The notes: generated by a model from the letters alone, not told the origin. A stretch of DNA of 64,000 bases from an uncultured Actinomycetota bacterium (GCA_963720575.1 CAVRGA010000002.1:5149209-5213208), one strand, 5' to 3'. Shown: positions 2,765 to 44,589, numbered from the stretch's first letter. Program-made: numbers and translations.

Positions 2765-2766
2765 GG

Positions 2767-25180: not shown

Positions 25181-25211
25181 CAGGTTCGCTTCCCGCGGCC
25201 CGGCCGAGAAG

Positions 25212-28232: not shown

Positions 28233-28472
28233 CGAGATCACCGCCCCATGGATTCGTCGTCGCCTGGTTAGCTGACGCCTGACGCGCCGCCCGGGTTTAC
28301 CTCCCAGGTGCCTCTGCGGCCGATTAGCACGGCACTGCGGGGCGGTCACCGCTTATATCACGGTAAAGTCGCACCCTTTGGGGGGCCGCTCCGGTTATGC
28401 GCCGGGCTACGATCGGAGCATGGGCGAGCAGTTGCCGTCTACGGCGCACGCATCCGGAGAGCGTCCGGGGCC

Positions 28473-28952
28473 ATGACGAAGTACCAGGCAGCGTGGCAGG
28501 AGATACGGGACTTACCGATCGGGCTTCGCGTCTTCTTTGGGCTTATCGCAGCCGGTTTCGTAGCGTTCTTCGGCGTATTCGACCTGCCGGTCACGGTCAA
28601 CGCGGTCGCGTTCCTAGCGGGCGCCGGCGGCCATGGCAGGTTCATCGCTACCGGCACCCGCGTCTCCTGCGGCGGGGATAACGGTTGCAACACGTTCACC
28701 GATGGCTACCTGGAACCCGGCCATATCTCGGCCACGGTGCCGGGTGTGGTCCATGGCTCGTTCCCGGCCCGGCTCCCAGTCTGGGTCTGGGGGCCAGACA
28801 ATGCCATGCCTTTCAGCCGCGACTCGGCGATCTTATGGGCGGTCTTTCTAGGTGGCATCCAGCTGGTACTGGCAGGGATCATCGCGTTCGCGGTCTACCA
28901 CGGGGCACGGGCATGGCGGTCTGCCAGGAGGCGCCGGGCCAAGCGAGAATGA
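28473..28952 (+). CDS. Small membrane protein (two predicted TM helices), unknown function.
   Basis: Start MTKYQAAWQEIRDLPIGLRVFFGLIAAGFVAFFGVF. Second hydrophobic segment near the C-terminus. Confidence 0.45.
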   Translation: MTKYQAAWQEIRDLPIGLRVFFGLIAAGFVAFFGVFDLPVTVNAVAFLAGAGGHGRFIATGTRVSCGGDNGCNTFTDGYLEPGHISATVPGVVHGSFPARLPVWVWGPDNAMPFSRDSAILWAVFLGGIQLVLAGIIAFAVYHGARAWRSARRRRAKRE

Positions 28953-28957
28953 GCGGC

Positions 28958-30283
28958 TCAGCTTCCTCCGGCGCACATGAGCGTCGATCCTCCGATGTAG
29001 GCCTCCAGGCCGTCCAGGACGGACGCCCGCGTCCCGAAGTTGACGTTGGTGTCGGAGCCCGGCTCCCACGTGAACCCGAAATGCGGCAGGGCGGCGATCG
29101 CATCGGCGTTGTTCTCGATGAAAACCCTCAGGTCGCCGTCATTGAAGTCGTGCAGCGAACAGTAGGCGCCGCGCTCGAAGTTCCCCTTGAAGATCAGGAA
29201 CTGGCCGAAGCCGTTGGTATTGGGTCCGCCTATGGTGCAGCCATCCGGCCAGGTGGCCGATTCGCACGGCTCGCTCAGAATGGCCGGCACGCCGGAGACC
29301 GTCGGCGGGCTGGTCAGGCTTGAGTTTGTGGTGACGGTGGTCGCCAGTTCGTCGGCCAGATTGCCGAAGAGGCTGCTGTAGGCGCCGCAGGTCGTCGTCA
29401 CGGGGCAGTACGCCTTGGCCGCTACCGACAGGTCAGCGTAGGCGTTGACCATCTCTCCTTGAGTGGACAGCCATTTTTGGGTGCCAGTTGCCGCGGTGCA
29501 GCCCGAGCTTGGGTCGGTTTCCCCGGCGATAAAGAACTCCGAGCCGGATGCGCCCGGGGCGGGCGTGCCGGCCACGTGGTTAGTCATCTCCGACATGACG
29601 CTGTCGGCAACCTGGAGGGCACCGCCCTTGCCGTCAGCCTTGCCGCCCATGTACTCGGCGTTACCGGTGATCTCGTACAGCCAGGCCGAGTCCCGTACGT
29701 ACAGGGAGTTAGCGAAACCGTCTTCGAGTTCGGGCTTCGACGCATCGGCGTTCTGCTGGACGATGAGGTCGCAGTCCTCCATGTACCCCTGGTCGGTGAT
29801 GTTGTTCCAGAGCTGCTCGGCCGCGTACAGGTACTTGCTGAGCTTGGTGTCCTCGTAAGCGTTGATCAGCGCCTGCTCCCACCAGCCCATGTCGTCGTAC
29901 CAGTGATTGTCGAACGGCGAGACTCCCTCGTCATCCGCGCCAGCGGGGCATCCTCCGTCGCAGAAGGTGCTGAACGTGTTCGAGAAGTCGGCCTTGATCG
30001 AGGTGATATTGCCCTGCCGGGTCGTGTTCGTGGTGCCGGTGTTGTTCTCGGCGTAATCAAAGAGCGCCATGAACGTGTCCGCCGTCCACCACCAGCAGTT
30101 TCCCGACTCCTGGCTGGCCGGACAGGTCGTGCTGAACAGGCCCGTGCTGTTCTGGTAAACGCCGAGAATGTCACTGGCGGCCGTGTCAGCCGCCGCGCTG
30201 GGCGTGACGGCTGCGCCGGCACCGGGTATTCCGAAAGCGAGAATGCCTAATGTGGTTACTAGCACACAAAGGATTCGTTTCAT
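28958..30283 (-). CDS. Secreted glycoside-hydrolase-like protein (possibly GH76 family).
   Basis: Start MKRILCVLVTTLGILAFGIPGAGAA (signal peptide). YDDMGWW and WLYEITGN segments resemble the GH76 six-hairpin family. The family call is tentative. Confidence 0.45.
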   Translation of the reverse strand: MKRILCVLVTTLGILAFGIPGAGAAVTPSAAADTAASDILGVYQNSTGLFSTTCPASQESGNCWWWTADTFMALFDYAENNTGTTNTTRQGNITSIKADFSNTFSTFCDGGCPAGADDEGVSPFDNHWYDDMGWWEQALINAYEDTKLSKYLYAAEQLWNNITDQGYMEDCDLIVQQNADASKPELEDGFANSLYVRDSAWLYEITGNAEYMGGKADGKGGALQVADSVMSEMTNHVAGTPAPGASGSEFFIAGETDPSSGCTAATGTQKWLSTQGEMVNAYADLSVAAKAYCPVTTTCGAYSSLFGNLADELATTVTTNSSLTSPPTVSGVPAILSEPCESATWPDGCTIGGPNTNGFGQFLIFKGNFERGAYCSLHDFNDGDLRVFIENNADAIAALPHFGFTWEPGSDTNVNFGTRASVLDGLEAYIGGSTLMCAGGS

Positions 30284-30415
30284 CCTTTGACAGTAAGTTA
30301 AGCTGGATACGCTGACAATACCCGAAACGACAGCCACTTCAGATAATCAACGCGCCGGCACGCGCGCGGCGAGCCTAGCCTAGATGGCCCGTCGGCGCGC
30401 GCACGGCTGCGGTTA

Positions 30416-30871
30416 CTACTTGTGCGGCTTCTTGACCGTGATGGTGATGGCGTTGCTGTGGCTCGCGCGCAGATGCGGCGTGCTCGCGGTATCGCCGGCG
30501 AACTTGGCCTCATAGTGCGAGGTCCGCGACGGCGCCGCGATGGTGAAGGTGAACGCGCCGCCAGTGCCGGTCGCCGCGGTCTCGCCGGTCGAGACGAAGC
30601 TCTTGTGCTTGCGCGACCAGGTGAACAACGTCACCATCTCGCCGCTGACGCCCTTGCGGTGAGCCCTGAGCACCCCGCTGATCGCGTCCGTGTGGTGCCT
30701 GGCGTGCGCGACGGCCTTGTTGTTCAGGTGCAGGAACGTAACCTCAGCCTTGGCCGGCTTCTTGCCGCTGACCGCGGCACCCGCCGTGCCGGCGGTCAAC
30801 AGGACGCCGCTGGCGGCCAGAACGGTGACAGCAGCCGCGGAGCCCAGCCGGGCGGCCAGAGATACGCGCAT
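30416..30871 (-). CDS. Small secreted protein, unknown function.
   Basis: Start MRVSLAARLGSAAAVTVLAASGVLLTAGTAGAA (signal peptide). About 150 aa. Confidence 0.5.
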   Translation of the reverse strand: MRVSLAARLGSAAAVTVLAASGVLLTAGTAGAAVSGKKPAKAEVTFLHLNNKAVAHARHHTDAISGVLRAHRKGVSGEMVTLFTWSRKHKSFVSTGETAATGTGGAFTFTIAAPSRTSHYEAKFAGDTASTPHLRASHSNAITITVKKPHK

Positions 30872-31065
30872 GGAGTGTCTCCTTCGGTGGGGGAAATGCA
30901 GCACCCAGGCTGCAACGGAACTGCTACTACAGCGATGCCGATCACCCCGGCGTTACTGCGCCCCATGATCGGCAACCGCGCTAGCCCTAGAGCCGCCTGC
31001 CTGTGACCTGAAGGCGTACGCTCATAGGCGTAGAACACAGTACATATCGGGGGAAGCGGCTTCAG

Positions 31066-31290
31066 ATGCCTTCTGGATCGCCGGACAGCCTGCTTGGCGC
31101 CATCGGCAGGGTGACCGTGTCCATCCCAGCGCATGGCCCTGGTGAGGTTCTCTTGCCGGTTCGGGGCGGCACTGAAGCGTTCGCTGCCTGGTCCGACGAG
31201 CCAGTCGCCAGGCACAGCCGCGTGGTTGTCGTCGAATGCCTGTCCGCACGGTCGGTTTTCGTTTCCATGCTTTCCACCCGTCCGGCTTGA
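31066..31290 (+). CDS. NfeD-like OB-fold small protein (short form), partner of the flotillin gene.
   Basis: GEVLLPVRGGTEAFAAWSDEPVARHSRVVVVEC resembles the NfeD C-terminal beta-barrel. Positioned immediately upstream of an SPFH gene. Start is uncertain. Confidence 0.3.
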   Translation: MPSGSPDSLLGAIGRVTVSIPAHGPGEVLLPVRGGTEAFAAWSDEPVARHSRVVVVECLSARSVFVSMLSTRPA

Positions 31291-31325
31291 GGGCCGGCCG
31301 GGCGCGTACTCATCGAGGAGTCGAG

Positions 31326-32672
31326 ATGATGTGGTGGCGGGTACCCGCGCCGAACGAGGCGCTGCTGATCTCCGGTTCGAAGGGGCGCAAGGACGGCTCC
31401 GAGCAGTTCCGGATCGTCACCGGTCACGGTGCCATGGTCCTGCCGATCAAGCAGAAGGCCCGGCTGCTCTCGCTCGCCCTGCGCGAGGCCGAGATCGTCG
31501 AGGACTGCATCACCCAGCAGGGAATCAAGCTCAACGTCCGGGCCGTCGCCGCTTTCAAGGTCGGCGACGACCCGGTCTCGATCGCCAACGCGGCCCGCAG
31601 GTTCCTGGCTGAGCAGGACAAGATGGAAGTGCTGGTCGGCCGGGTGTTCGCCGGGCACCTGCGGTCGATCATCGGCGGCCTGACGGTCGAGCAGATAATC
31701 CGGGAGCGCGACCGGGTCGCCCAGGAGGTCAAGGACGGCAGCCACGGCGAGATGGAGAAGCTCGGCATCGTCGTCGATGCCCTGGAGATCCAGGAAATCG
31801 AGGACGCCTCCGGTTACATCAACAATCTCGCGGCCCCGCATGCGGCGGCAGTCGCCAGCGCAGCCCGCATCGCCCGGGCCCGGGCTGATCAGGAAGCCGC
31901 TCAGCGCGAGCTTGAAGTAGCCGCGATGAAGGCTCAGTACGAGCGCGATACCGAGATCAAGAAAGCCGGCTTCCTGGCGGAGACCGAGCAGGCCAGGTCA
32001 AGGGCCGCCCAGTCCGGCCCGCTTGCCTCGGCTCAGGCGTCGCAGGAAGTCATCGAGCAGCAGACAGCGCTCGCCAGCAGGCAGGCCGACCTGGCCGCGC
32101 AGCGCCTGGAGGCAGAGGTGCGGCGGCCCGCCGACGCCGAGGCCTACCGCAAGCGCGCCATCGCCGAGGCCGACCGCGACCAGGCCAAGCTCGCCGCGGA
32201 AGCCGACGCCTATCGCAAGAGAATGCTCGCCGAGGCAGACCGCGACCAGGCCAAGCTCGCTGCCGAGGCCGAGGCTTACCGCAACACCACGATTGCCGCG
32301 GCACAGGCCACGGCCGCCAAGCTGCAGGCCGACGCGGCAGCCTACGCCGAGAGGGCGACGGCTCAAGGTGAAGCCGACGCGAACGAAGCCAGGGCCACCT
32401 CGCTCCGCGCGGGTAACCAGGAGCTCATCGCAGCCAGCCGTCTCATCGAGCAGCTGCCCGTGCTGGTTGAGGCAGCAGCGCGCGGCATCGCCGATTCCAA
32501 CCTGACTGTCCTGAATGGCGCGCAGGGCGTCAATGAGCTGCTTGCCGGCCTGGTAGGCCAGGGCCTGTCGATTTTCGAGCTGCTCAAGAAGTCGACTGCC
32601 GCAGCAGTCGGAGAACTCCCGGCCTCCGATGTGAACGGAAAGGCCGCGCCCAAGGCCACCGCTCCGCACTGA
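31326..32672 (+). CDS. Flotillin-like SPFH/band-7 protein.
   Basis: Start MMWWRVPAPNEALLISGS. SPFH core. Long Ala/Glu-rich coiled coil with repeated AEADRDQAKLAAEA (flotillin EA repeats). Confidence 0.8.
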   Translation: MMWWRVPAPNEALLISGSKGRKDGSEQFRIVTGHGAMVLPIKQKARLLSLALREAEIVEDCITQQGIKLNVRAVAAFKVGDDPVSIANAARRFLAEQDKMEVLVGRVFAGHLRSIIGGLTVEQIIRERDRVAQEVKDGSHGEMEKLGIVVDALEIQEIEDASGYINNLAAPHAAAVASAARIARARADQEAAQRELEVAAMKAQYERDTEIKKAGFLAETEQARSRAAQSGPLASAQASQEVIEQQTALASRQADLAAQRLEAEVRRPADAEAYRKRAIAEADRDQAKLAAEADAYRKRMLAEADRDQAKLAAEAEAYRNTTIAAAQATAAKLQADAAAYAERATAQGEADANEARATSLRAGNQELIAASRLIEQLPVLVEAAARGIADSNLTVLNGAQGVNELLAGLVGQGLSIFELLKKSTAAAVGELPASDVNGKAAPKATAPH

Positions 32673-32997
32673 CAAAGTGCCCAGAGCCCGGATGCTGATG
32701 ACGACCCGCCGAGATCCGCTCAGCACCACAACGTTAAAGCTGAAACCAATTTTCTTAATGAAAAATTTGCGGTGCCTGGACGTGCACTCCTGAGGCCAGT
32801 GCAGCCGGCCTGCCAGCGGAAGCCACCCGCCTGGTGCGCCTTAGTAACATCTTCCGTAATCTACTGGTTCATAGATTTTCCCGATTACAAGGTATATCGT
32901 GGGCGTAGTCGGGCGTGCTCAAGATAGCTAGAACGTCGGCTATCGCCTTGGGCATACGGATAGTTAAAGATCGGTACAGTCCTGTATGCTCCCCCTC

Positions 32998-33378
32998 ATG
33001 GGCGAAATAGAAGAAGGGCCGCCACCTGTCCTTGTGACCATCGGCGATATTTCCTGTACATCCCAGTCAGTTATCACGCCTTCAGGGAGCCACCCCATCA
33101 AGGATGTGGTGTGGTCCGTCAACGACATGACTTCCACCGTCCGGGTCATTCCGGTCTGGGCGATTATTCTGACAATCATTACTTTTTGGTTCTTTCTTAT
33201 TGGGCTACTCTTCTTGCTCGTCCGGGAGACCAGGACGACCGGGAGCGTTCAGGTGGCCGTCCAGGGCGCGAATTTCTTCCATTCGACGCAAGTTTCCGTG
33301 AGCAGCCCAGCCCAGGTGGCCGATGTCAACTCGCGGGTCGGATTCGCGCGCTCGCTGACCGCTGGCGCGACCGCCTAG
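32998..33378 (+). CDS. Small membrane protein (one TM), unknown function. First gene of the ATPase/toxin operon. GC content is atypical.
   Basis: MGEIEEGPP…VIPVWAIILTIITFWFFLIGLLFLLVRETR. Codon usage is AT-richer (att/ttt/ctt) than its neighbours. Preceded by an AT-rich leader. Confidence 0.45.
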   Translation: MGEIEEGPPPVLVTIGDISCTSQSVITPSGSHPIKDVVWSVNDMTSTVRVIPVWAIILTIITFWFFLIGLLFLLVRETRTTGSVQVAVQGANFFHSTQVSVSSPAQVADVNSRVGFARSLTAGATA

Positions 33379-33402
33379 CTGGCCGGATCTCAAGGGGGGC
33401 AC

Positions 33403-35271
33403 ATGGTGCAGGATCTTCCGGCAGAGCGGCCGGAGCCAGCAGTCGCCGCGCAGGAGATCAGCCTCGCTGAGAAGCTGTTCGTGCCGGCGGAGAGGTGGGG
33501 GTGGGAGTACGCCGAGCCCGCGAGGCTCGAAGTTCCGGCCCGGCTCCAGCAGAAGCCCGAGTGGCGCGAGCCCTCGATCACGGCTCGGCCCCCGGTGCCG
33601 CTGACTCGTTCCGCGCAGCGACCGCCGCCCCGGCTGGGCTGGCGCCTGGCGGTCTTCATTCCCGTGACGCTCATCTGCCTGCTGATCGCCGTGCATGCTG
33701 CCGGGATACTCGTCATTCCGCTAGTACTCGGCCTCATCCTGTTCGTGCCGATGGCGTCAGCGGGCACGCGGCAGCCCGCGGTTGGCCCGCATGACCTCCG
33801 CCAGGCGGAGTGGAGCAAGTATCAGCAAGAGCTCAGGCTGTGGGAAACGGCGGTCGCCCAGCACGAGCATGCCGAGGTGGCTCGCCTGGCGGGCATGCCC
33901 GTCTGGTATCCGCTCAGCACCGATGCCGCCGCCCGCCGGGTCGACATCGTGGGCGGCACCGGCGACGGGTGGGCCGCCATGCTGGCGACATTCGGCATGT
34001 CAGCGCTCGCGAACGACGACATGATGCTGCTGCTCGACTTCTCTCAGCATGACGTCGGAGGCGGCTTAGCCGAACTGGCTTCCGTGCCCGATCTGGCGGT
34101 GGAGTGGCTGCATCTCCCGGCCGATCTGGCCGCGATTGACCTGCTTGACGAGCTCGACGCCGAAGCGTGCGCCGAGACGATCGCCGAGGCGGTCGCGACG
34201 CTGCGGCCTGTGCCGGGAAACGCTGATGTGCGCGCCATGCACGCGGCGTTCCTCCGCACCGTCACCAGCAGGCTCGACGGGAGTCTCACCTTCGCCCGGA
34301 TCGCCGCCGGCCTGCGGGTCCTGCAGCGACGCTACGACGACACTGGCGAAACGACCCCGCTGGCCGCGCAGGAGCTACGGGCACTGCATGCCCAGGTCGA
34401 TACCGTCGGCGGCTCGGAACGAGCTGATGGCGAATTGTCATTCCTGTGCGAGATGCTCGAGCTACTGGCTACCGGAAGCGTTACCGGAGTCAATGACCTG
34501 CGATCCTGGCATCAGGCACAGCTGACTGTTATCGCCACGGACGATCTCAATGAGCGCAGGAAGGACCTGATCGACAGGGTGCTGCTTCAGGTGGTGCTCC
34601 AGCATCTGCGCAGGCGCCGTTTCGGCAATGGCCATGGGCTGCTCGCTATCGCCGGGGCCGACCACCTTGGCGCGGTTACGCTGGAAGCGCTGACCCGGCA
34701 CGCCAGGCTTAACGGCGCCCGCCTGATCCTCTTCTTCGAGCATCTGCGCGCCGATGCCGTTCAGATGCTCGGCGGGTCCGACAGCGCTGCCATATTGATG
34801 CGGATGGGAAACGCGCAAGAGGCAGCGGCGGCCGCCGAATTCATCGGACGGGCCCATCGTTTCGTTCAGAGCCAGCTGACCAGGCAGGTCGGCCAGACGA
34901 AGACCGTGTCAAGCGGAGTTACAGGCGGCGGACAGTCAGGGCTCAGCACGACGTCCGGTCAGAGTTCGGGACACAGCCACAGCGCTGGCGCGATATCGCG
35001 GCATTCTTCCTGGCATTCGTCAGTCACGGACTCTCGCATGCTCACCTGGAACGAAACAAAGAACTGGTCGACGGCCTCGTCGGTTACCGAAGGCGAGACG
35101 TCCCAGCGCGTCTATGAATTCGCCGTCGAGCCCACCGAAATCCAGTCGCTGCCGCTGACGGCGTTCATCCTCGTGGAGTCCGGTCACGGTGGCCGCCGCG
35201 TCACGCTCGGGGACTGTAATCCCGGGATCGTGACGCTCGACCGGGTGTCGGCCGCGTCCCGTAGCGCCTGA
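33403..35271 (+). CDS. Membrane-anchored protein (2 TM) with a degenerate P-loop NTPase-like domain, paralogous to the downstream ATPase.
   Basis: 622 aa. TM hairpin LAVFIPVTLICLLIAVHAAGILVIPLVLGLILFV. VDIVGGTGDGWAAML…DDMMLLLDFSQ lines up with AFVCGATGAGKSQTV…PWLVIEPAKS of the next gene, with the Walker A Lys replaced by Trp. Ser/Gly-rich C-terminus. Confidence 0.55.
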   Translation: MVQDLPAERPEPAVAAQEISLAEKLFVPAERWGWEYAEPARLEVPARLQQKPEWREPSITARPPVPLTRSAQRPPPRLGWRLAVFIPVTLICLLIAVHAAGILVIPLVLGLILFVPMASAGTRQPAVGPHDLRQAEWSKYQQELRLWETAVAQHEHAEVARLAGMPVWYPLSTDAAARRVDIVGGTGDGWAAMLATFGMSALANDDMMLLLDFSQHDVGGGLAELASVPDLAVEWLHLPADLAAIDLLDELDAEACAETIAEAVATLRPVPGNADVRAMHAAFLRTVTSRLDGSLTFARIAAGLRVLQRRYDDTGETTPLAAQELRALHAQVDTVGGSERADGELSFLCEMLELLATGSVTGVNDLRSWHQAQLTVIATDDLNERRKDLIDRVLLQVVLQHLRRRRFGNGHGLLAIAGADHLGAVTLEALTRHARLNGARLILFFEHLRADAVQMLGGSDSAAILMRMGNAQEAAAAAEFIGRAHRFVQSQLTRQVGQTKTVSSGVTGGGQSGLSTTSGQSSGHSHSAGAISRHSSWHSSVTDSRMLTWNETKNWSTASSVTEGETSQRVYEFAVEPTEIQSLPLTAFILVESGHGGRRVTLGDCNPGIVTLDRVSAASRSA

Positions 35272-35286
35272 CGCGGCTGGCAGCAC

Positions 35287-38205
35287 ATGCGGCAAGAGGC
35301 CGGCGATCACGCGGCGGCGCCCTGGACGAGCTACCGCTTCGTCCAGCTGCTGGCCGTACCCCGGTCAAAGCGGCCCGCGTCAGCAGCGCGGGACGCCGAG
35401 CCGGACCCGGGTTACCGTCGCCTCACTCAGCTGTTCGCGGCCCTGACATCGGCACATGCGACCTTGTCCGGTCATCGGGCTGACGGCGCCGGGGCGTTCG
35501 CCATGGCGTGGTTCCGGTCACCGGCTCAGGCGGATCACCGCGTCGTGCTCGGCGGGCAGCCCGTCCTCCCCTGGTCAGCGGCAGTATCAGCGAAGCCGGC
35601 GAAGACGCTGCGGATTCCCTACCCGCCGGGCGCCCTTGTCCGGGAGCTTCCTGCCGGCCAGCTGGGCGGCTGGCTGACTGAGTTCCCGTCATGGGTGGCG
35701 TGCACGGCCGTGCCGGACGCGCTGTGGACTAAAGATGACGGCAAGGCTCGGGACGGCTCCTTTGACGACTACGCGGCTTGCCTGTCCGAGCCGTTCGCCT
35801 GGGTCGTGCTGGCCGAGCCGCTACAGGCCGAGGAGCTCGACGAGGAGCTCACCAGCCTCGAAACGCAGATTCCCAGGATGCGGCAGCGGCAGAATTCCGA
35901 GGCCGACCGGGTGCGCCTGGAGCGTTCCGAGGCGCGATACCGGGAACTAGCCAGATCCAGGATCTACGGCACCTGGAGCGTGCGCGTGCTGGTGGGCGGC
36001 ATGAACGTCGCCCAGGCGCGCGCTACGGCGGCGTTGCTCTGCGGCGCGAGCGAGCTGGGCGGCCTGCCCTACGCGCTGACGCCTTCGGGAGGCTGCGGCT
36101 CGCAGGAGAGCCTGCTCCAGGCTTTCGCGCACCGACGGGCCGGAGATGCGCCGTTCGCGGCGAGCACCGAGATGGTCGCCGCCCTGGCACGGCCGCCCGA
36201 GAAAGAAATGCCTGGCATCAGGGTGATCACCCCGCCGACCTTCGACATCACCCCTGAGCACTCGACCGGGACCGGGTTCAGCCTCGGAACGGTGCTGGAC
36301 GAGACGCTGACGTCCGCAGGTGAGTTCCTGCTCTCCCCGGCGACGCTCAACCGGCATGCCTTCGTCTGCGGGGCTACCGGCGCAGGAAAGTCACAGACCG
36401 TGCGGTCCCTGCTTGACGCTCTGGCCACCAGCCAGCCTCCGGTGCCCTGGCTGGTGATCGAGCCCGCCAAGTCTGAATACGCCCGCATGGCAGGCCGGCT
36501 CGCGGGCCGCGGCAAGGTGACGATCATCAGGCCGGGCGACTCGACGTCGGTGCCAGGCTGTCTTAACCCGCTCGAGCCTGAGCCCGGATTCCCGATCCAA
36601 ACCCACATCGACCTGATCAGGGCGCTTTTCCTGGCTGCCTTCGAGGCGTACGAGCCGTTCCCTCAGGTACTCAGCCACGCCCTGACCCGCTGCTATCAGA
36701 ACATGGGCTGGGATCTCGCGCTGAGCGAGTCGCGCCTGCCCGGCATCACGCCCGCTTGGCCGACCCTGACCGACTTGCAGCGCGAGGCGCTCTCGGTGGT
36801 CGAGCACATCGGCTACGGCCGGGAGGTGACCGCCGACGTCAGGGGCTTCATCGACGTCCGGATCAGCAGCCTGCGACTTGGCACCCCAGGCCGGTTCTTC
36901 GAAGGCGGCCATCCGCTCGACCTGGCCAGCCTGCTGAGCAGCAACACCGTCCTGGAGCTCGAGGACATCGGCAACGACCAGGACAAGGCATTCCTCATCG
37001 GCGCCGTCCTCATTCGCGTGGCCGAGCACCTGCGCCAGCGCTGGGGCCGGTATGAGGGCGAGCTGACCCTGCGGCACGTCACCGTCGTCGAGGAAGCGCA
37101 CCGGCTGCTCAAGGTCGCTGAGCTTGGCAGCCCCGCCGCCCACGCCGTCGAGCTGTTCGCCGCGCTGATCGCCGAGATTCGCGCCTACGGCGAAGGCATC
37201 GTCGTGGCCGAGCAGATCCCCGGCAAGATAGTGACCGACGTCATCAAGAACTCAGCGCTCAAGATCGTCCATCGGCTGCCCGCTCAGGATGACCGGCTCG
37301 CCGTCGGGGCGACCATGAACCTCGACGAACGGCAGTCACAGTACGTCGTCACGCTGCCGCCAGGCCAGGCGGCGGTCTTCGCCGACGGCATGGACCATCC
37401 GGTACTCGTCGCGATGCCGTACCGGGAAGAGCAGGAAACCGCGACCGGGGCGAGCCGCGAAGTTGGCCTGGCGGGCAGGCGCGGCATGGCCTGCGGCACG
37501 CAGTGCCGGGTCCGAGCCTGCACGCTGCGCGAGATCGCCCTCGGTGAACGGGCGGCCGCCGATCCGCACGTGATCTTGTGGCTTGAGCTCCTCATCGTCG
37601 CCCACCTGGTCGGCGAGCCAGAGCCCAGGCCGGACCGCACCTGGCTGGCCGGCCTGCGGAAAGCAGCCGACCGCAGAACGCTGGAGTGCGCCGTCGCAAA
37701 CAGGATCGATACGGCGATCACGAGCCGCTATGGCGAGCTGGTCAGCTTCTACCAGCCGGAATCGCTCGCGGCCCACGTCGCCGACTGCGCCATGCGCTGG
37801 CTGGATGGCGCGGCCGGCAGCTGCGAAGGCAATGAGATCGGCTGGCAGGCCGGCCGGTACCGGTGGATCGACGTCGTCAGGTCACTGCACGACGGCACCC
37901 CGAAGGACAGGCCCCATCCGGCCACCGCGAGCTGGCGTGCCCGCGGCCTCGAGCTGCCCGGCAGCACCCAGGCCAAGCAGCTTGAGGCCTGGCGGCGCCA
38001 CCCGGATACGTGGCTGCCATCGCGGACGGTCATCGAGGGCAGGGATAGCCCGCCCGCGTACGAGCGCGCGGCCAGCCAGCTCAGCGACGCCATCGAGCCG
38101 ATCGACCGCCTCGCGCGGGCGGTCACGTTCCTGGCTACCGGCACGGACTGGCCAGAGACACGCCTGTACCCGGAGGCGTGGCGCGCTCGCCGGGAGGCGA
38201 CATGA
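35287..38205 (+). CDS. HerA/FtsK-superfamily (DUF87-like) ATPase with N- and C-terminal extension domains.
   Basis: 972 aa. Walker A AFVCGATGAGKSQTV. Walker B / HerA signature TVVEEAHRLL. Second HerA signature IVVAEQIPGKIVTDVIKNSALKIVHRLPAQDDRLAV. Cys cluster CGTQCRVRAC in the C-terminal domain. Confidence 0.75.
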   Translation: MRQEAGDHAAAPWTSYRFVQLLAVPRSKRPASAARDAEPDPGYRRLTQLFAALTSAHATLSGHRADGAGAFAMAWFRSPAQADHRVVLGGQPVLPWSAAVSAKPAKTLRIPYPPGALVRELPAGQLGGWLTEFPSWVACTAVPDALWTKDDGKARDGSFDDYAACLSEPFAWVVLAEPLQAEELDEELTSLETQIPRMRQRQNSEADRVRLERSEARYRELARSRIYGTWSVRVLVGGMNVAQARATAALLCGASELGGLPYALTPSGGCGSQESLLQAFAHRRAGDAPFAASTEMVAALARPPEKEMPGIRVITPPTFDITPEHSTGTGFSLGTVLDETLTSAGEFLLSPATLNRHAFVCGATGAGKSQTVRSLLDALATSQPPVPWLVIEPAKSEYARMAGRLAGRGKVTIIRPGDSTSVPGCLNPLEPEPGFPIQTHIDLIRALFLAAFEAYEPFPQVLSHALTRCYQNMGWDLALSESRLPGITPAWPTLTDLQREALSVVEHIGYGREVTADVRGFIDVRISSLRLGTPGRFFEGGHPLDLASLLSSNTVLELEDIGNDQDKAFLIGAVLIRVAEHLRQRWGRYEGELTLRHVTVVEEAHRLLKVAELGSPAAHAVELFAALIAEIRAYGEGIVVAEQIPGKIVTDVIKNSALKIVHRLPAQDDRLAVGATMNLDERQSQYVVTLPPGQAAVFADGMDHPVLVAMPYREEQETATGASREVGLAGRRGMACGTQCRVRACTLREIALGERAAADPHVILWLELLIVAHLVGEPEPRPDRTWLAGLRKAADRRTLECAVANRIDTAITSRYGELVSFYQPESLAAHVADCAMRWLDGAAGSCEGNEIGWQAGRYRWIDVVRSLHDGTPKDRPHPATASWRARGLELPGSTQAKQLEAWRRHPDTWLPSRTVIEGRDSPPAYERAASQLSDAIEPIDRLARAVTFLATGTDWPETRLYPEAWRARREAT

Positions 38206-38840
38206 CTGAACTCAGGGAGCCCGAGCCGCCCGTCATCGACCAGGCGGAGCTGAATGACCGCGCCGGCACCCAGGATGCGCCAGCAGCCCAGCGAGACGCC
38301 GAGCTGATCCCAGCACCTCGGCAGCAGGAAGTGCGGGACACCGGCACGACCGACGACCAGCAGGCTGACAACCCTCCGCCCAGCGTCGACGGACCGCACG
38401 AGTCGCCCGAGAGCTGGGCCGGCGACATCAACCCGGCAGACGACCGGGCCAACTGCGGCGACTGCGCGCGTGCCAGTCAGCAAACCTGGGAAGGCGATCC
38501 GCGTGCGGCGGCGATGTCTGCGGACACCGACGGTGAGCCTCCAGAACGGATGGCCGAATGGGCGGGCGAGACGCCCAGGGAGGTCACCATGGCTGAGGTC
38601 GGCGAGCGACTGCAGGACCTTGGGCCGGGAAGTTCCGCGATCGTCGGCTTTGATCGAGAGGACGACGTCGGTCACTGGTTCAATGCCGTCAACGATGATG
38701 GAGAGATCAAGGCAGTGGACGGCCAGAGCGGGGCCGTTGAGCCGTGGCCGCCTACCGTGGACGGACTCGGTTTCAGCGAAGCTGAGATGAGTTACTCGGA
38801 CGCCATTTTCTTTGATCCATCAGGGAGGACCGTTACGTGA
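38202..38840 (+). CDS. Papain-fold toxin-like protein (Tox-PL-type Cys-His-Asp/Gln catalytic triad) with an acidic, disordered N-terminal half.
   Basis: ATGA overlap with the ATPase stop. NCGDCARASQQTW (Cys nucleophile motif), …SSAIVGFDREDDVGHWFNAVNDDGEIKAVDGQSG (His and Asp/Gln). The arrangement matches papain-like polymorphic-toxin domains. Confidence 0.55.
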   Translation: MTELREPEPPVIDQAELNDRAGTQDAPAAQRDAELIPAPRQQEVRDTGTTDDQQADNPPPSVDGPHESPESWAGDINPADDRANCGDCARASQQTWEGDPRAAAMSADTDGEPPERMAEWAGETPREVTMAEVGERLQDLGPGSSAIVGFDREDDVGHWFNAVNDDGEIKAVDGQSGAVEPWPPTVDGLGFSEAEMSYSDAIFFDPSGRTVT

Positions 38841-39115
38841 TTACACACGACGATGCTGAGCGCATCGCGACCGATATCCTCGGGGCACCCGGCCCGGTCG
38901 AGGATCCCGACTGGAGGCTCGTCGAGTTCGACTCAGGCTGGCTCATCAAGAAAAAATCCCAGGGTCGGCGCGGCGGTGTGACCAGGGTTATCGAACGCTC
39001 ATCCGGTGAGGTACTTGAGTTTCCATCGAGCATCTCATCTCGTCGCATCCTGGATGATTTCGCGGCGGTAGCAGATCGCGGCCGCGTCAATAAGGACGCG
39101 CGTGGCGGAGGCTGA
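38837..39115 (+). CDS. YrhB-like immunity protein.
   Basis: 92 aa. ATGA overlap with the toxin stop. MITHDDAERIATDILG…WRLVEFDSGWLIKKKS…VIERSSGEVLEFPSSISSRRIL matches the YrhB-family pattern (MI..EA..IA…GW…G…FPSS). Confidence 0.55.
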   Translation: MITHDDAERIATDILGAPGPVEDPDWRLVEFDSGWLIKKKSQGRRGGVTRVIERSSGEVLEFPSSISSRRILDDFAAVADRGRVNKDARGGG

Positions 39116-39118
39116 CCA

Positions 39119-39470
39119 ATGACGCTGAAGACCGCCCGGCTCACGATCGACCGCAGCTTGCTCCCGCAAAAATGGGACGGCCTTGGCATCAAGTTCGAGC
39201 GTCGTTCCGTCGTGGCCATCAAGGCCTCCGCCCCGCCCCGTGACCTGGTGCTTGTCAAGCCGGCGGGATCGCTTCTCGCCGCCGGCGATGCGGTGGGCCC
39301 CGAGCCGCGCTGGAACAACATTCTCTGCGGGCCTCAAGGCCATGGACGGCACGGACGCGCAAGGGCAGGGCCAGCTGCTCATCACGGGCCAGCGGATCAT
39401 CGGCATGATCGAGAACGGACAGGTGGCAGGCGGGTCGCCGCTCTCCGATTCCACCGGCAACATATAAAAA
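39119..39470 (+). CDS. Hypothetical small protein; the reading frame appears broken near 39290-39330.
   Basis: Frame A: MTLKTARLTIDRSLLPQKWDGLGIKFERRSVVAIKA…PEPRWNNILCG. Frame B continues plausibly to a stop at 39467: …MDGTDAQGQGQLLITGQRIIGMIENGQVAGGSPLSDSTGNI. Confidence 0.25.
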
Positions 39471-39769: not shown

Positions 39770-40555
39770 TCATCGGCTGCGGATCTGATTACGCACGGGT
39801 GGCTTGCCGAAGATGGCTTCCTTGGAGGCCTGCGCGAGGGTGGCCTGGGTACTGGCGGGCAGCCCGATCCTGTTCCAGTGGAAGATCACGTGCAAAGCGA
39901 TAACTGCCCGAAGTCCGCAGGTGAGTTCCCCTGTTTCCCGCAGCCTCCGCAGGTCGGTGCCTGCGTTTTCGAATGCTGCGTGCCATTCGCCGGCAGCCCT
40001 GGGGATCCCGGTGAGGAGCAGGCGGGCGCTGGCTGTGAAGTCGTCCCATGCGCGGGCTTCCGAGACTAGGGGGCGGTTGATGTGCTGAGCGCGATAATCG
40101 AGGACTCTTGCCCAGACGTCGCCTTGTTCGTTGAGGTCGAGCGCGGCTGCGCGCATGAGTCCCGTGCAAAGCACGAGCGAGCGTTCCCGCCGGTCAGCCG
40201 GGTCCTGGCGGAGGTAGGTGAGGAGGTGGCGGCTGTCGTGGTGGAACAGCGCATGCGCGCTGGCCATGGCTTCGGTGCCGCCGAACGCGTGGGTCTCAGG
40301 TTCGTAGATATCTGCGGTCCAGCTGACTCCGCAGCCGATCATCCTGGAGGCGAGGCCGGGGTTATCGGGTTCCTTCGCGGGCTGGTATCGGATACGCCAG
40401 GGGCCTTTGCGGATGAACCACCAGGAGGTGATTAGACCGTCGGTTTCAGCGGCGGGAAGCACCTGCGAAAGATGGGCGACAGCGTGATGTTCTTGCCGCT
40501 GGCGTGTGTCGCCGAGCCAGGTGATGTTGATCTGCTGCCAGGGAGTCTCGTCCAC
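39770..40555 (-). CDS. Stand-alone SpaB_C-type (lantibiotic dehydratase C-terminal / thiopeptide-type) elimination-domain protein.
   Basis: WWFIRKGPWRIRYQ and IYEPETHAFGG…LFHHDSR motifs. Proposed GTG start at 40555, 14 nt after the LanC stop. The annotated ORF start (40732) would overlap LanC. Confidence 0.7.
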   Translation of the reverse strand: MDETPWQQINITWLGDTRQRQEHHAVAHLSQVLPAAETDGLITSWWFIRKGPWRIRYQPAKEPDNPGLASRMIGCGVSWTADIYEPETHAFGGTEAMASAHALFHHDSRHLLTYLRQDPADRRERSLVLCTGLMRAAALDLNEQGDVWARVLDYRAQHINRPLVSEARAWDDFTASARLLLTGIPRAAGEWHAAFENAGTDLRRLRETGELTCGLRAVIALHVIFHWNRIGLPASTQATLAQASKEAIFGKPPVRNQIRSR

Positions 40556-40568
40556 GGCTGGCCTTTCG

Positions 40569-41639
40569 TCAGGTGAGGAGCAGGCACGCGTCCCACGAGG
40601 TGGCGGTGGTTCCGGCAGTGGCGAGGTCGGCGCCTGCCGTGCCGTCGAGGAGGCCGGTGATTTCGCCGGGGGCAGCGGGAGCCTGCCGGTGCAGGTCGTG
40701 GAGCGGGGTGAGGGATACCGGGGTGGAGGCATCGCCGGCGATACGGCGGGCGGTGGCGAGGAGCCCAGCGGTGCCGTGGCAGAGGCTGCGGCCGGTCAGG
40801 AGCCCGGTCTGGGATGGGTCGGTGACGCAACTGGCGAATGCGGTCTCGGCGAGGTGCTGGCGGGCGGGGTCGCGCAGGGCCTGCGCGGCGAGTTGCTGGG
40901 CGCGGGCGATGCCGGGGGTGCCGTAGCACCAGGACGGCCTGGGCGGGGTCCGCTGGGCTGACGCGCCGTGGTGCAGCTCGGCGCGGGTAATGGCCTGGGG
41001 CCACCAGGTGATTCCGCCGGTGCCTTGCTGCCAGGTATCCAGCCATTGGCAGATGCGGCCGATCGCGGTGGTGTGGCCGTCGACCGTAATGCGGTCGGTG
41101 CGGGTGAGGGCGAGCAGCGCGAGCGGGCCGGCGATGCCGTGGGCCATGCCGAAGTTAGCGTGGCCTCCGGCGAGCTGCGCGCGTCCTGGTCCGTTCCTGC
41201 ACCACCAGCCCGGCAGTGTGCCGATCGGCTCGGTAAGCCGGACCAGGTACTCCAGGATGTCGCGGAGCAGGTCGTGGTCGCCGAGCCGCCGCGCGGTGAC
41301 GCCGAGTCCGGTCAGGCCCCGGATGAGGTCATATTCAGCGTAGTGCGGCTGCTCGTGCCGGTCGATGCGGCGACGGGCGGCATCGAGCCGCTGGCTGGTG
41401 ACGATGGCTGTGCCCTCGGCGGTGAGCGCCTGTGCGTGCGCGAGTCCGGGGCGGTCGGTAGTGGCGAGTACGAAAGCGATTGCGGGGGCGCCGTAGAAGA
41501 GGCTGGCGCCAGCGCCGATGCTGACACCGCCGGCGGTGGCGCGGCGCAGTGCCTCCTGCGCCGCCGGCCAGTTGCTGGTCTCCAGGTGCAGCAGGGCTAC
41601 CCCGGCCATTCCGTCGGCGAGGGATTGCTCGTTGCTCAT
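40569..41639 (-). CDS. lanC: LanC-like lanthipeptide cyclase.
   Basis: 356 aa. Zinc-ligand motifs SWCYGTPGI and CHGTAGL. GxxG repeats (HANFGMAHGIAG). Confidence 0.85.
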   Translation of the reverse strand: MSNEQSLADGMAGVALLHLETSNWPAAQEALRRATAGGVSIGAGASLFYGAPAIAFVLATTDRPGLAHAQALTAEGTAIVTSQRLDAARRRIDRHEQPHYAEYDLIRGLTGLGVTARRLGDHDLLRDILEYLVRLTEPIGTLPGWWCRNGPGRAQLAGGHANFGMAHGIAGPLALLALTRTDRITVDGHTTAIGRICQWLDTWQQGTGGITWWPQAITRAELHHGASAQRTPPRPSWCYGTPGIARAQQLAAQALRDPARQHLAETAFASCVTDPSQTGLLTGRSLCHGTAGLLATARRIAGDASTPVSLTPLHDLHRQAPAAPGEITGLLDGTAGADLATAGTTATSWDACLLLT

Positions 41640-44429
41640 GGTGCTTGCCGGGCGCGGGCGGTGCGGGCTATGGCGCGGGCCAGGCGCAGGCAGTGCCGTT
41701 CGGAGGCGGGATCGACGCTGATCATGCGGGCGTGGTGCAGGTGGAGCAGGTCAGCGAGAACCTGGTCGGGGTCGAGGCCGTCGCGGCTGGCCAGGGTGCG
41801 GTAGGCGGTCAGTGCTGCGGTGAGCTGTTCGTCGCGGAACGGTATCCGGGCGAGAGTGAGCTGGGCGGGGTTCAGGCGGGGTCCGGTGAGGTGCGTGGTG
41901 CCTGCGAGCCAGCTGAGGCCGTGGCCGGTGAAGCTGTCAGCGATGGTGATCATGCTGGCGGCGGTGGCTGCCTGCCGGTCGCCGGCCAGGCGGTGCAGGA
42001 CGGCGCGGGAATCGGCCGCGAAGACCGCCTCGGCGGCGGCGAGTGCCGCTCCGGTGCCGTGCCGGGTTTCGGGCCGGTAGGGGTGGAGGCTGTAGTCGTG
42101 CGCGGCGGCGTGATCGTGCAGTTCCCGGCCAGGCAGCGAGGTGCCGGGCGGTGTCGGCGAACTGGCCGGGGCGCGGGAGCGGGATGCGCAACCGCAGGTG
42201 GGGCGCGGGGTCGGGATACCGCACGAACCACCAGCCTGAGGGCAGGTGGTCGCCCGGGCGGGTGGCGAGGTCGGCCAGGATGTCGTCGGTCCGGCCGTGC
42301 AGGTGCGCCTCGAGCCAGCGTCCCTGTCCCGGGTGGTACTCGACAGTGCTGGCCGGGCGGGCGGGCCGTGCTGGCCGGGCCGGCTGGGTGCGGGTCAGTG
42401 TGAGCACGATCTCTGCGGGGCGTCCGCCGATCCAGCCGGCCGGACCCGGAGCCTCGGTGATCATGATGCGGGCCTGCCGGCTGAGCTGGCTGCGCAGGAT
42501 GGCGAGGTGAGCGGGCTCGTCGAGGTCCAGCTGCAGTCGCACGTCGTCGTCGCCTTCCAGGACCTCGCGGGGAAGCCGGAGCTGTTCGCGGTGGTGCTGC
42601 CAGGCGTCGCGCCATTGCGGCCAGGTCGCGGTGCGGGCGGGAAGCGCTTCCCGGTCGATGATCCACCGGGCGGGGTGCACGATGCTGCGGCCGTGGCGGA
42701 CTCGGGGCAGGAACGGCAGGCTGCTGGCATGTCCCCAGTCGAACCGGCTGCACGGCGCTGTCCACGCGGTCCAGATCTCGGTCAGGAACCGCATCAGGGG
42801 CTGCTGCAGGGCCGGCAGCAGCACGCTGTTGAGCAGCAGCGGCTCCACGGGCCGCCCGGTGACCTTCGATACCAGCCACAGCCGCTGGCCGTCGCCGGTC
42901 ACCGCCAGGTCCTGCACCGTCCGCTGCGGTACCGGATGGAACTCGCCCAGGGGGAGGACGGGCAGCACCTCGGGCACCCGGGCCACTGCCGTCAGGCGGG
43001 CGTCCAGCGGAGGGCCGGAGAGCTGGACGATATCCGCGCCGGGCAGCGCCGTCGGCAGGTACCGGAAGGCACGCCGGTATGAGGCGAGCTCGGCGGGGGT
43101 CAGCAGGTGCAGGAACCGGCCGGCGGCGACGCCGGCGTGACGTGACCCGCTGAGCACCGTCAGCGTGAACTCTCCCCGGTCCAGGTCTGCCAGGGTGCCG
43201 GCGGCCAGGGTGAACCGCAGGTCGGCGTGCGGGACCGGCGGCCGGCGGTCATCGCCGCGTAAGGCACCGATCAGCGCGTCGTCGAGTATCACCTCGGTGC
43301 CGCCGTTCAGCGCGGACTGCTGGGCGACCTGGCCGAGCAGCCGGTCGCGGGCGGTGAACACCGCTGGGGAGCGCCGGGCGGATCCCCGGTATCCGGCGGG
43401 GTATCCCAGGACGTTCAGCAGATCACGGACCGGCACGGCTGCTCCGGGCCCCCACCGCTCGATGAACGCATGGTGGTACTCGGCCCATCCGGGCATGCCA
43501 GGCGCCACCGCGGTCAGCGCCGACGCAGCCCGGCCCGCCTCACGGAGTACCGCGGGCGGCAGTGTAACGGCGGCGTCGGCACGCAGATCGACTGCGACCC
43601 GGCTGCCGGGGCGCGGCAGGGTGTAGCAGCGAGCCGCGTACCCGGCCGGATCGGTTACGGTCATCGCCGGGCGCAGCTCTGACAGCAGCACCCCCGTCTG
43701 CACCAACCCGGCCAGCAGCTGCTCGGCCGCGGCGGCGTCCGCTGGTCCGGCGATCGTCGCGGCGAGCCCGGCGAACCCGGCCGGCGAGCGCGCTGCATCG
43801 ATGGCGGCCCGGACCGGGCCGGTCAGCCGGACCTCGGCATCCCACCTGCGCTCCCCGTCCGTGCGGGCACAGGGCACCACCCACCGGTCGCCGCGCTGAT
43901 ATCCGAGCGTATTCGTCACCACCGCGACGGTGCGCAAGACATCGAGGTCCGTCTCGGCCCGCGTGGCGTGCTCGGCGATGAACTGGCCGTCGGGACGGGT
44001 GACCAGCTGGTGCTCGTCACCGATACGGACTGCCGCGCGGTCACCGAAGCGGACCGGGGCGATGCCGGCGAAGCTGCCGAACGGCGTCGCGCGGGTGGTC
44101 CATCGCAGCAGGTATCGGATCGCTGACTCGGTCAGCCGGCGCAGCCGCTGCCGGGGCACCGGATCACCGGTCACCGCGCTGCTGATCTGTGCGGCCAGCT
44201 GGGGAGCTGCGGAACTGACGGCCGCCGCGAAGCCAGGCAGCCGCCAGGCGAGGGTCAGCCACTCCTGCCACTGCGCGGGAGCGCCCGAGGCCAGGTCAGG
44301 CCAGGCCGGCAGATCCAGGCCGGCCGGATACGAGGCGGCCCGGATGTGGGCCGTGCCTTCTGCGGGAATCATCGGACGCTCCGGGGAAGCTCGGCCCGGC
44401 GCGCGAGGTACCGGACCCGAGGAGGCCAA
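41636..44429 (-). CDS. lanB: LanB-type class I lanthipeptide dehydratase, full length (glutamylation plus elimination domains). Apparent frame break near 42130.
   Basis: ORF 41937-44429 gives the Lant_dehydr_N-like domain and ends …GWWFVRYPDPAPHLRLR…HLAAW, then Arg/Pro nonsense. A third frame from about 42130 reads …YRPETRHGTGAALAAAEAVFAADSRA…, which continues into ORF 41636-41953 (…VLADLLHLHHARMISVDPASERHCLRLARAIA). This parallels the SpaB_C protein at 39770. ATGA overlap with lanC. Confidence 0.8.
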
Positions 44430-44440
44430 CGGATCGGCCG

Positions 44441-44589
44441 CTATGCGTCGGAGCGGGTCGTGCAGGCCGTCCCGCTCGTGTTGCCTGAGCCGCAGTTGTC
44501 GTCAGTGGTGGTGCTGTGGCCGGTGGCGGCGGCCCGGAGTCAACCAGGCTGACGTCCAGGGTGAACTCCGGGGATCGGGTTTCGCTCAT
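44441..44589 (-). CDS. FxLD-family lanthipeptide precursor (LanA), apparently interrupted by a single-base indel.
   Basis: ATGA overlap with the upstream methyltransferase stop. Leader MSETRSPEFTLDVSLVDS(G) contains F-x-L-D. After a G/C run (about 44520-44545) a different frame reads …ATGHSTTTDDNCGSGNTSGTACTTRSDA-stop (TAG at 44441-44443): a Ser/Thr/Cys-rich core. The in-frame continuation lacks any Cys and runs into lanB. Confidence 0.5.

Follow-up and report, generated by a model that had tools for sequence, protein, structure and literature searches.

A membrane-anchored pseudo-ATPase, a HerA-like ATPase and interchangeable toxin cassettes form a widespread actinomycete module with a possible role in toxin export

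Gene organization of the locus

Within a 64,000-nucleotide stretch of DNA from an uncultured Actinomycetota bacterium (GCA_963720575.1, CAVRGA010000002.1:5149209-5213208; hereafter the window), a compact block of genes encodes two predicted members of the FtsK/HerA superfamily, a membrane-anchored pseudo-ATPase (g2) and a soluble ATPase (g3), followed by a putative papain-fold toxin (g4) and a small candidate immunity protein (g5). The real unit in this block is g2 and g3 together with a swappable toxin-immunity cassette, and this unit is a widespread actinomycete module.

The window is high-GC actinomycete DNA (68% GC), and the block consists of five open reading frames (ORFs), all on the plus strand and tightly packed between 32986 and 39115, separated by 24 nt and 15 nt at the first two junctions and overlapping by ATGA and GTGA at the next two (Table 1). 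The initial annotation of the window had described a six-gene co-directional operon at this place. The five tightly packed ORFs agree with that description, but the sixth gene is not intact, and conservation across the 80 loci compared below does not extend to g1, g5 or the sixth gene. All motifs that had been quoted for g2, g3 and g4 were found in their places. Third-position GC content is 0.72 in g1, 0.80 in g2, 0.86 in g3, 0.74 in g4 and 0.66 in g5, the lowest value of the block.

Table 1 Coordinates of the gene block, of the sequence elements discussed in the text and of the lanthipeptide genes
Feature	Position (nt)	Strand	Description
AT-rich intergenic leader	32673-32985		upstream of the gene block; 53% GC against 68% in the window
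g1	32986 (or 32998)-33378	+	130 aa; 58% GC; one hydrophobic segment, residues ~48-82
g2	33403-35271	+	622 aa; predicted membrane-anchored pseudo-ATPase
g2, ERWGWE motif	33490-33507	+	N-terminal
g2, degenerate Walker A	33952-33972	+	GGTGDGW, residues 184-190
g2, degenerate Walker B	34648-34671	+	AGADH in place of hhhhDE
g2, S/T/G/Q-rich loop	34858-35115	+	residues 486-571
g3	35287-38205	+	972 aa; predicted soluble ATPase of the HerA/VirB4 clade
g3, Walker A	36370-36393	+	GATGAGKS, residues 362-369
g3, Walker B	37084-37101	+	VVEEAH, residues 600-605
g3, Cys cluster	37489-37521	+	ACGTQCRVRAC, residues 735-745
g4	38202-38840	+	212 aa; putative toxin; start overlaps g3 stop (ATGA)
g4, papain-fold domain	38451-38732	+	residues 84-177
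g5	38837-39115	+	92 aa; candidate immunity protein; start overlaps g4 stop (GTGA)
Doubtful sixth gene	39119-39467	+	coding signal changes frame near 39250
Stand-alone Lant_dehydr_C protein	39770-40732	-	lanthipeptide set
LanC	40569-41639	-	lanthipeptide set
LanB	41937-44429	-	Lant_dehydr_N, E=4.5e-161
PCMT-type O-methyltransferase	44586-45845	-	lanthipeptide set

The ATPase g3

From its sequence, g3 is predicted to be a catalytically intact ATPase of the FtsK/HerA superfamily and of its HerA-VirB4 branch, having intact Walker motifs, a family hidden Markov model (HMM) score above cut-off and a matching fold. Besides the Walker A and Walker B motifs, g3 contains the motif KIVHRLPAQDD (residues 659-669), and G362, T364, G365, G367, K368, S369, E602 and E603 do not vary among 54 sequences. 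The Pfam gathering scores were exceeded for DUF87 (29.3 against 23.2 bits) and HerA_C (23.5 against 22 bits), the score for FtsK_SpoIIIE fell under its cut-off (22.2 against 24), and the HerA models and mad8 of PADLOC were matched with E=1e-13 to 1e-15. Its description as an active HerA/FtsK-superfamily ATPase in the initial annotation is upheld by the invariant motifs and by the DUF87 and HerA_C scores.

A comparison of the g3 family profile with the PDB returned the HerA proteins 8yho, 8wiv, 8j4u and 4d2i as well as YjgR, and the best PDB sequence matches of g3 were HerA proteins of defence systems (8yho, 8wiv, 8j4u, 8xau and 9c1m). The AlphaFold2 (AF2) model of g3 is confident (pLDDT 88.9) and has four parts: an N-terminal domain of about 300 residues, which a newer Pfam release names DUF8350, a small beta unit, the ATPase itself and a helical C-terminal region. 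A single P-loop domain is present in g3, which lacks any hydrophobic or transmembrane (TM) segment. The C-terminal helical region carries a cluster of cysteines (Table 1), whose CGxxC...C pattern is present in the family consensus and which is followed by further conserved cysteines (C801, C846); the cluster may be a metal-binding site.

The membrane-anchored pseudo-ATPase g2

In g2, the ERWGWE motif is followed in order by a TM hairpin (residues ~77-123), a coiled coil, a P-loop domain of the FtsK/HerA/VirD4 type, a disordered loop and a beta element. The predicted structure has the P-loop ASCE fold of the VirB4/TrwB/HerA type, its nearest folds being VirB4, DptH and the coupling protein TrwB, but it lacks the catalytic lysine and the acidic pair of the Walker B motif. 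The Walker A region follows the family pattern 'RIDVFGGTGDGW', with an invariant tryptophan (W190) at the position of the lysine in 40 homologs. All 40 share the ERWGWE motif, the hydrophobic hairpin, AGADH, a long S/T/G-rich loop and a conserved C-terminal beta element.

We regard g2 as a pseudo-ATPase because the Walker A lysine is replaced by W190 and the Walker B motif by AGADH, both throughout the 40 homologs. Taken with the model, this makes g2 a predicted membrane-anchored, catalytically dead member of the FtsK/HerA superfamily whose overall arrangement is that of a type IV coupling protein. The earlier view of g2 as a probably non-catalytic paralog with a TM hairpin is borne out by the invariant lysine-to-tryptophan change and by the TrwB/VirB4-like predicted fold.

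The kinship of g2 and g3 rests on predicted structure, because the comparison of the two family alignments by hhalign was not significant and a search of the PDB with the g2 profile (hmmsearch) stayed at chance level (TrwB E~1; the loop of protective antigen and Vip4 E 0.4-8, probably compositional). Pfam, NCBIfam and PADLOC likewise gave no match to g2. The name 'EccE' carried by one UniRef homolog of g2 is an automatic label with no Pfam or NCBIfam match behind it, and was dropped.

The disordered loop is an 85-residue stretch rich in S, T, G and Q with very low model confidence, interrupting the dead P-loop domain just before the last conserved beta element, and it is kept as a compositional feature in all 40 homologs. 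Its profile matches, to the loops with which anthrax protective antigen and Vip4 form pores, are at chance level, and the loop is without their hydrophobic alternation.

Conservation and distribution of the g2-g3 pair

The search with g3 found 2113 relatives at E<=1e-5, other HerA-like families included, and the best 120 of these 2113 were almost all actinomycete. Eighty genome loci around g3 relatives were compared with flanks of 10 kb; the window proteins were searched in them by tblastn, and genes were called by a crude rule based on third-position GC (GC3). g2 lies beside g3 in 61 of the 80 loci, directly upstream on the same strand in 41, divergently in 16 and downstream in four, and clustering of the called genes within +/-10 kb left g2 as the only recurrent partner of g3. 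The tblastn search found no counterparts of g1, g5 or the sixth gene in the other loci, and a g4 counterpart only in Amycolatopsis eburnea. Conservation as a gene set therefore holds for the adjacent g2-g3 pair (61/80) but not for g1, g5 and the sixth gene. The pair is present in Streptomyces, Pseudonocardiaceae, Nocardia, Micromonospora, Kribbella, Frankia and Actinomadura.

The 19 loci that lack g2 are treated as a separate g3 subfamily. This distant subfamily (L042-L074 in our numbering) comes mostly from Streptosporangiaceae and metagenome-assembled genomes; its inspected neighbours are housekeeping genes (trehalose-phosphate synthase, a HIT protein, a polytopic membrane protein), and a conserved 86-aa ORF often lies just upstream.

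Annotated copies of the module also occur on large actinomycete plasmids, where none shows components of a type IV secretion system (T4SS) nearby, and 16 of the 19 plasmid records with g2 are non-mobilizable. The copy on S. clavuligerus pSCL4 (NZ_CP016560.1, 391634-397698; L085) is annotated as a hypothetical protein, an ATP-binding protein, an ADP-ribosyltransferase and a 134-aa protein, corresponding to the g2-like BB341_RS29380, the ATPase RS29385, the ADP-ribosyltransferase RS29390 with an acidic leader of ~110 aa, and RS29395. Chromosomal contexts of the module are unrelated to one another.

A variable toxin cassette follows the ATPase

Where g2 is present, the ORF that follows g3 usually overlaps its stop codon (a gap of -3 in 19 of the 44 called cases; as genes were called by the GC3 rule, these numbers of downstream ORFs are approximations). 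The toxin gene is translationally coupled to the g3 gene. The N-termini of 26 of the 44 called downstream proteins are acidic and proline-rich, without a hydrophobic signal or a shared folded domain. These leaders open with a short start of the type M-[ST]-[ED]-[LI], often continue with a proline run or PEP-type repeats and then pass into acidic low-complexity sequence, which extends from tens of residues to about 1000. Within the N-terminal parts of the downstream proteins we found no Pfam domain, hydrophobic signal or known trafficking domain.

The C-terminal parts are diverse. A Pfam scan of 37 downstream proteins identified Peptidase_C2 (six proteins), Gln_amidase (two), RelA_SpoT (two), ADPrib_exo_Tox, Zeta_toxin and Tox-REase-2, so that the place after g3 is shared by at least six Pfam toxin families; many of the downstream proteins have no known domain. 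Neither a PADLOC match nor a Pfam match to WXG/LXG was obtained for any of the 37. In most loci a small ORF follows the toxin gene, for example DUF6406 (four cases, after calpain-like toxins), an HD hydrolase near RelA_SpoT toxins and, in a Nocardia copy annotated on a large plasmid, an ankyrin-repeat protein in the immunity position. Some loci have a second toxin, such as one matching CdiA_C_tRNase.

Similarity among the downstream proteins is confined to their C-terminal 270-340 residues and does not follow the ATPases. Two loci (L015 and L051) have ATPases of 46.6% identity and toxin C-termini that are 93.6% identical over 343 aa, with leaders of 1007 and 164 residues, respectively. In another two (L024 and L034) the ATPases are 87% identical, whereas the toxin C-termini are unrelated. 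The toxin also remains with g3 where g2 is divergent (L039, L051, L052, L055). Because toxin similarity is restricted to the C-termini and is discordant with the ATPase tree, the toxin modules are exchanged independently of the ATPase, as is typical of a polymorphic toxin locus. The toxin g4, taken in the initial annotation as a fixed partner of the ATPase, is accordingly one among many interchangeable cassettes.

The toxin g4 and the candidate immunity protein g5

g4 matches the Pfam family Gln_amidase/Tox-PL1 (PF15644) with E=7.1e-16 to 7.7e-16 and 59.6 bits against a cut-off of 24.1. It contains the motifs NCGDCA, GHWFNAVN and DGQSG, which supply NC at residues 84-85, H158 and D173-x-Q175. 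The pattern NC...H...DxQ is the defined catalytic signature of Tox-PL1 (Zhang, de Souza, Anantharaman, Iyer and Aravind 2012, PMC3482391) and is intact in g4. The HMM score well above cut-off and the intact signature support the earlier assignment, and g4 is predicted to be a papain-fold toxin of the Tox-PL1 type. Its N-terminal leader of 83 aa is acidic and proline-rich (20 D/E, 6 K/R, 12 P).

Outside the window, a Gln_amidase toxin follows the ATPase only in the A. eburnea locus (RSEC01000060.1, locus positions 12838-16040; L084). There, the 75-aa gene in the immunity position is directly followed by the gene for a second protein, of 758 aa, whose leader is repetitive and extremely acidic, so that the locus holds a tandem toxin array.

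For g5, an immunity role is plausible from its position directly after the toxin, as the initial annotation had it. Its label as a YrhB-like protein is not established: g5 has no Pfam match even at E<=10, and among 52 of its relatives scanned against Pfam (55 were found by exhaustive phmmer search) two weakly match Imm35 (PF15567; best E=0.004). Five of the 52 weakly match Imm-NTF2-2 (best E=2.6e-4). In one relative there is a Gln_amidase domain (E=1.7e-12), and this supports a functional link of g5 to the Gln_amidase type of toxin. g5 has no TM segment, and BLASTP gave no alignment between g5 and the 75-aa product of the gene behind the A. eburnea Gln_amidase toxin.

Flanking genes and sequences

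The earlier remark on an AT-rich leader is confirmed by the composition of both the leader and g1 relative to the window (Table 1). The leader may carry a promoter; promoter, terminator and Rfam scans returned nothing usable, the leader having neither a sigma-70-type nor an Rfam match. g1, which has no significant Pfam match, was considered as a conserved small membrane subunit and rejected in this role, having no counterpart upstream of g2 elsewhere (in Kribbella the upstream gene is unrelated); it is a local accessory gene outside the conserved module.

The sixth gene had been placed at 39119-39470, which cannot be a single ORF because 352 nt is not divisible by 3. The ORF from 39119 runs to 39688, its third-position GC signal is lost near 39250, and after ~39250 a second frame (39183/39288-39467) takes over the coding signal. 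Automatic gene calling on the identical public contig gives only a 59-aa product at this site. The sequence is thus either a frameshifted remnant or a short gene of 59 aa (39288-39467). It has no relatives in the 80 loci, and shows no similarity to the second toxin gene of A. eburnea (758 aa), of which it was considered as a possible remnant. No flanking direct or inverted repeats of note mark the boundaries of a mobile element, no tRNA search having been made, and two weak partial matches were all that was found among 50,697 phage records.

Directly downstream of the module, on the minus strand, lies a class I lanthipeptide gene set (39770-45845; Table 1). Just upstream, an SPFH/Band 7 gene (31236-32672) contains three tandem 66-nt (22-aa) repeats at 32128-32325, which are 65-100% identical and fall in the C-terminal half of the protein. 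Further upstream, the convergent ORFs 24903-26756 (plus strand) and 26790-28349 (minus strand) encode mutual paralogs of 617 and 519 aa without a Pfam match, and the adjacent ORFs at 28308-30904 are likewise unannotatable.

Proposed function and alternative explanations

The best reading of the module is a dedicated, ATP-driven apparatus for the recruitment or export of polymorphic toxins, a proposal to which we give an even chance of being correct. From comparative genomics and predicted structures we infer this function and, within it, complex formation, the direction of transport, export itself and the immunity function of g5. The ATPase g3 would form a ring motor, as its relatives do, and dock on a ring of g2 at the membrane. 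It would recognize the short N-terminal motif of the toxin together with the long acidic, proline-rich and disordered leader, and ATP hydrolysis by g3 would then thread the toxin through the g2 assembly or hand it over. The toxin would subsequently be released or delivered into neighbouring cells, while g5 would neutralize g4, a putative Tox-PL1 deamidase or protease, in the producer and its kin. We speculate that the extended acidic leader is a type of substrate that a nucleic-acid pump could accept. That g2 and g3 form the core of an unrecognized secretion or delivery system of filamentous Actinomycetota, with a HerA-type ring motor, from a family that otherwise pumps nucleic acid, threading toxins by their DNA-like polyanionic, proline-rich leaders to the outside or into adjoining hyphae, is a more tentative proposal, which we consider somewhat more likely to be wrong than right.

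The initial annotation had put export and defence side by side. Export or delivery is favoured by the way the cassettes behave, by the immunity-type genes and by the membrane anchor, and defence is its main rival. Several observations weigh against export. The conserved membrane element is a two-helix hairpin only, and within +/-10 kb in the 80 loci there is no conserved channel, cell-wall hydrolase or other part of a secretion system. The nearest solved sequence relatives of g3 are HerA proteins of anti-phage systems, DptH of Dnd restriction is a top structural match for both g2 and g3, and one plasmid copy lies in a conflict/defence island. The acidic leader was seen in about 60% of the called downstream ORFs (26/44, with crude gene calls), and 19 of the 80 g3 homologs, the most distant ones (41-49% identity), have neither g2 nor toxins.

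A HerA-scaffolded system for abortive infection or against mobile elements is an explanation that we consider possible but rather unlikely. Here the g3 ring would sense or translocate invading DNA at a membrane site held by g2 and would free the toxin from its immunity protein or activate it, killing the infected hyphal compartment, with the toxins serving as interchangeable effectors in the way that Sir2 and DUF4297 do in known HerA systems. The defence HerA proteins among the best PDB matches of g3 and the PADLOC matches to HerA and mad8 speak for such a system, as do the bias of the distribution towards multicellular actinomycetes and the position of the effector gene directly after HerA, which is the layout of known HerA systems. 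So does the module copy beside trypco2/serine-protease and ABC-three-component genes. That copy is on the S. antimycoticus plasmid NZ_CP108859.1 (L086, locus positions 455-3596 and 19677-19890), where trypco2 and a serine protease, DprA/ComF, DUF6615 and the ABC-three-component genes are found nearby in what looks like a conflict island. However, the effectors of the module are classical interbacterial toxin domains followed by immunity-type genes, in some loci as tandem cassettes, whereas known HerA defence systems are without immunity genes, and an effector held on a scaffold would have no need of disordered leaders of 80-1000 aa. PADLOC also gave no match for g2, g4, g5 and the 37 downstream proteins, among which Sir2 and DUF4297 are absent.

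An apparatus reduced from a T4SS or derived from conjugation, in which g2 would be a degenerate VirD4/TrwB, g3 a VirB4 homolog and the remaining T4SS parts encoded elsewhere, would account for the coupling-protein-like architecture of g2, with its N-terminal TM hairpin followed by a P-loop domain, and we judge it improbable. A published remark points the same way, in that one Streptomyces clade of alarmone synthetases adjoins genes named 'TrwB, TrwK and TrwI' (Ahmad et al. 2025, PMC12691689). This neighbourhood could be the same module under structure-based names; the sequence file of that study contains no proteins with acidic or poly-proline leaders. Of membership in a VirB4 or VirD4 family with conserved neighbours, what was found is a resemblance of fold, but the family HMMs score far below cut-off (VirB4_plasma 18 against 590 bits, CD1110 14 against 325, TrwB_AAD_bind 14.8 against 20.5) and the conserved neighbours (+/-10 kb, 80 loci) include no other T4SS gene, whether VirB6-like, VirB8-like, for a hydrolase or for a relaxase. 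Moreover, the coupling-protein-like partner is catalytically dead throughout the 40 g2 homologs, most plasmid copies sit on non-mobilizable replicons (16/19), and the chromosomal contexts are mutually unrelated.

Finally, the ATPase pair and the toxin-immunity pair could be functionally unrelated neighbours, for example an addiction cassette beside a housekeeping ATPase. The lower third-position GC of g4 and g5 than of g2 and g3, expected of recently acquired DNA, and the 19 g3 homologs without toxin and g2 are compatible with chance adjacency, but it is contradicted because the arrangement recurs, and we regard it as very improbable. In many genera this very position is taken by unrelated toxins, which often share the ATGA overlap with g3 and have the same type of leader, and the toxin stays with g3 even where g2 is divergent.

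Significance

Interbacterial protein toxins of the Streptomyces group are barely understood, the current examples being umbrella particles, ABP toxins and substrates of type VII secretion systems (T7SSs). If the export reading is true, the module would represent a new and widespread way of trafficking polymorphic toxins, based on two proteins of the FtsK/HerA type, and the acidic, proline-rich disordered leader would be a candidate for a new type of export signal. The conserved pairing of an active with a dead ATPase offers an object of study, and the loci provide a catalogue of toxin and immunity cassettes, many without a known domain. If instead the defence reading is true, the module would be the first among HerA systems to combine a membrane pseudo-ATPase with effectors guarded by immunity proteins. 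The copy on S. clavuligerus pSCL4 is a ready experimental system in a model organism.

Comparison with known systems

The initial annotation knew of no described system with this combination of components, and a full-text search of the literature agrees with it, yielding no clear description of the module and no paper that mentions 'DUF8350'. As in T4SSs, where TrwB/VirD4 accompanies VirB4/TrwK, a membrane-anchored P-loop protein is paired with a soluble ATPase of the VirB4/HerA clade, and known T4SSs are able to export protein toxins. Unlike them, the module has a g2 that has lost the Walker A lysine and the Walker B glutamate and a signal that appears to be N-terminal and acidic rather than C-terminal, in addition to family HMM scores far under the cut-offs and the lack of any conserved T4SS component or relaxase nearby.

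With the T7SS (EccC/EssC) the module shares an actinobacterial ATPase of the FtsK/HerA superfamily and polymorphic toxins followed by genes that in the module are candidates for immunity, and EccC also has degenerate P-loop domains. In contrast to EccC/EssC, with its TM segments and its three P-loop domains in tandem, g3 contains only one P-loop and is without a TM segment; it scores 16 bits against the EccCa model TIGR03924 (cut-off 509), and genes for EccB, EccD, MycP and WXG100 proteins are not conserved near the module.

The HerA anti-phage systems (Sir2-HerA/Nezha, DUF4297-HerA) and DptH contain the nearest relatives of the g3 ATPase domain, and in these systems, too, the effector adjoins HerA. 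Their effectors are Sir2 proteins or nucleases without immunity genes, a membrane pseudo-ATPase or disordered leaders, whereas g3 is extended by N-terminal (DUF8350) and C-terminal domains. No Sir2 or DUF4297 effector was detected when g1, g2, g4, g5 and the 37 downstream proteins were scanned with Pfam and PADLOC. In Streptomyces, TraB exemplifies how a single membrane-associated ring of the FtsK family suffices to move a polyanionic macromolecule between actinomycete hyphae; TraB moves double-stranded DNA, recognizes clt repeats and is an active membrane-spanning enzyme of conjugative plasmids.

Close parallels are found in polymorphic toxin systems, which likewise have variable C-terminal toxins including Tox-PL1, recombinational replacement and occasional extra cassettes, and in which an immunity gene takes the downstream position held in the module by a candidate one (PMC3482391). 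The leader of the module falls outside the types listed there (WXG/LXG, RHS/PAAR, MuF, SpvB, signal peptide), and no pair of a HerA-like ATPase with a dead membrane ATPase is listed in that survey (PMC3482391). The module lacks what defines a T4SS, a T7SS or a known HerA defence system, and is like a polymorphic toxin system with a new trafficking part.

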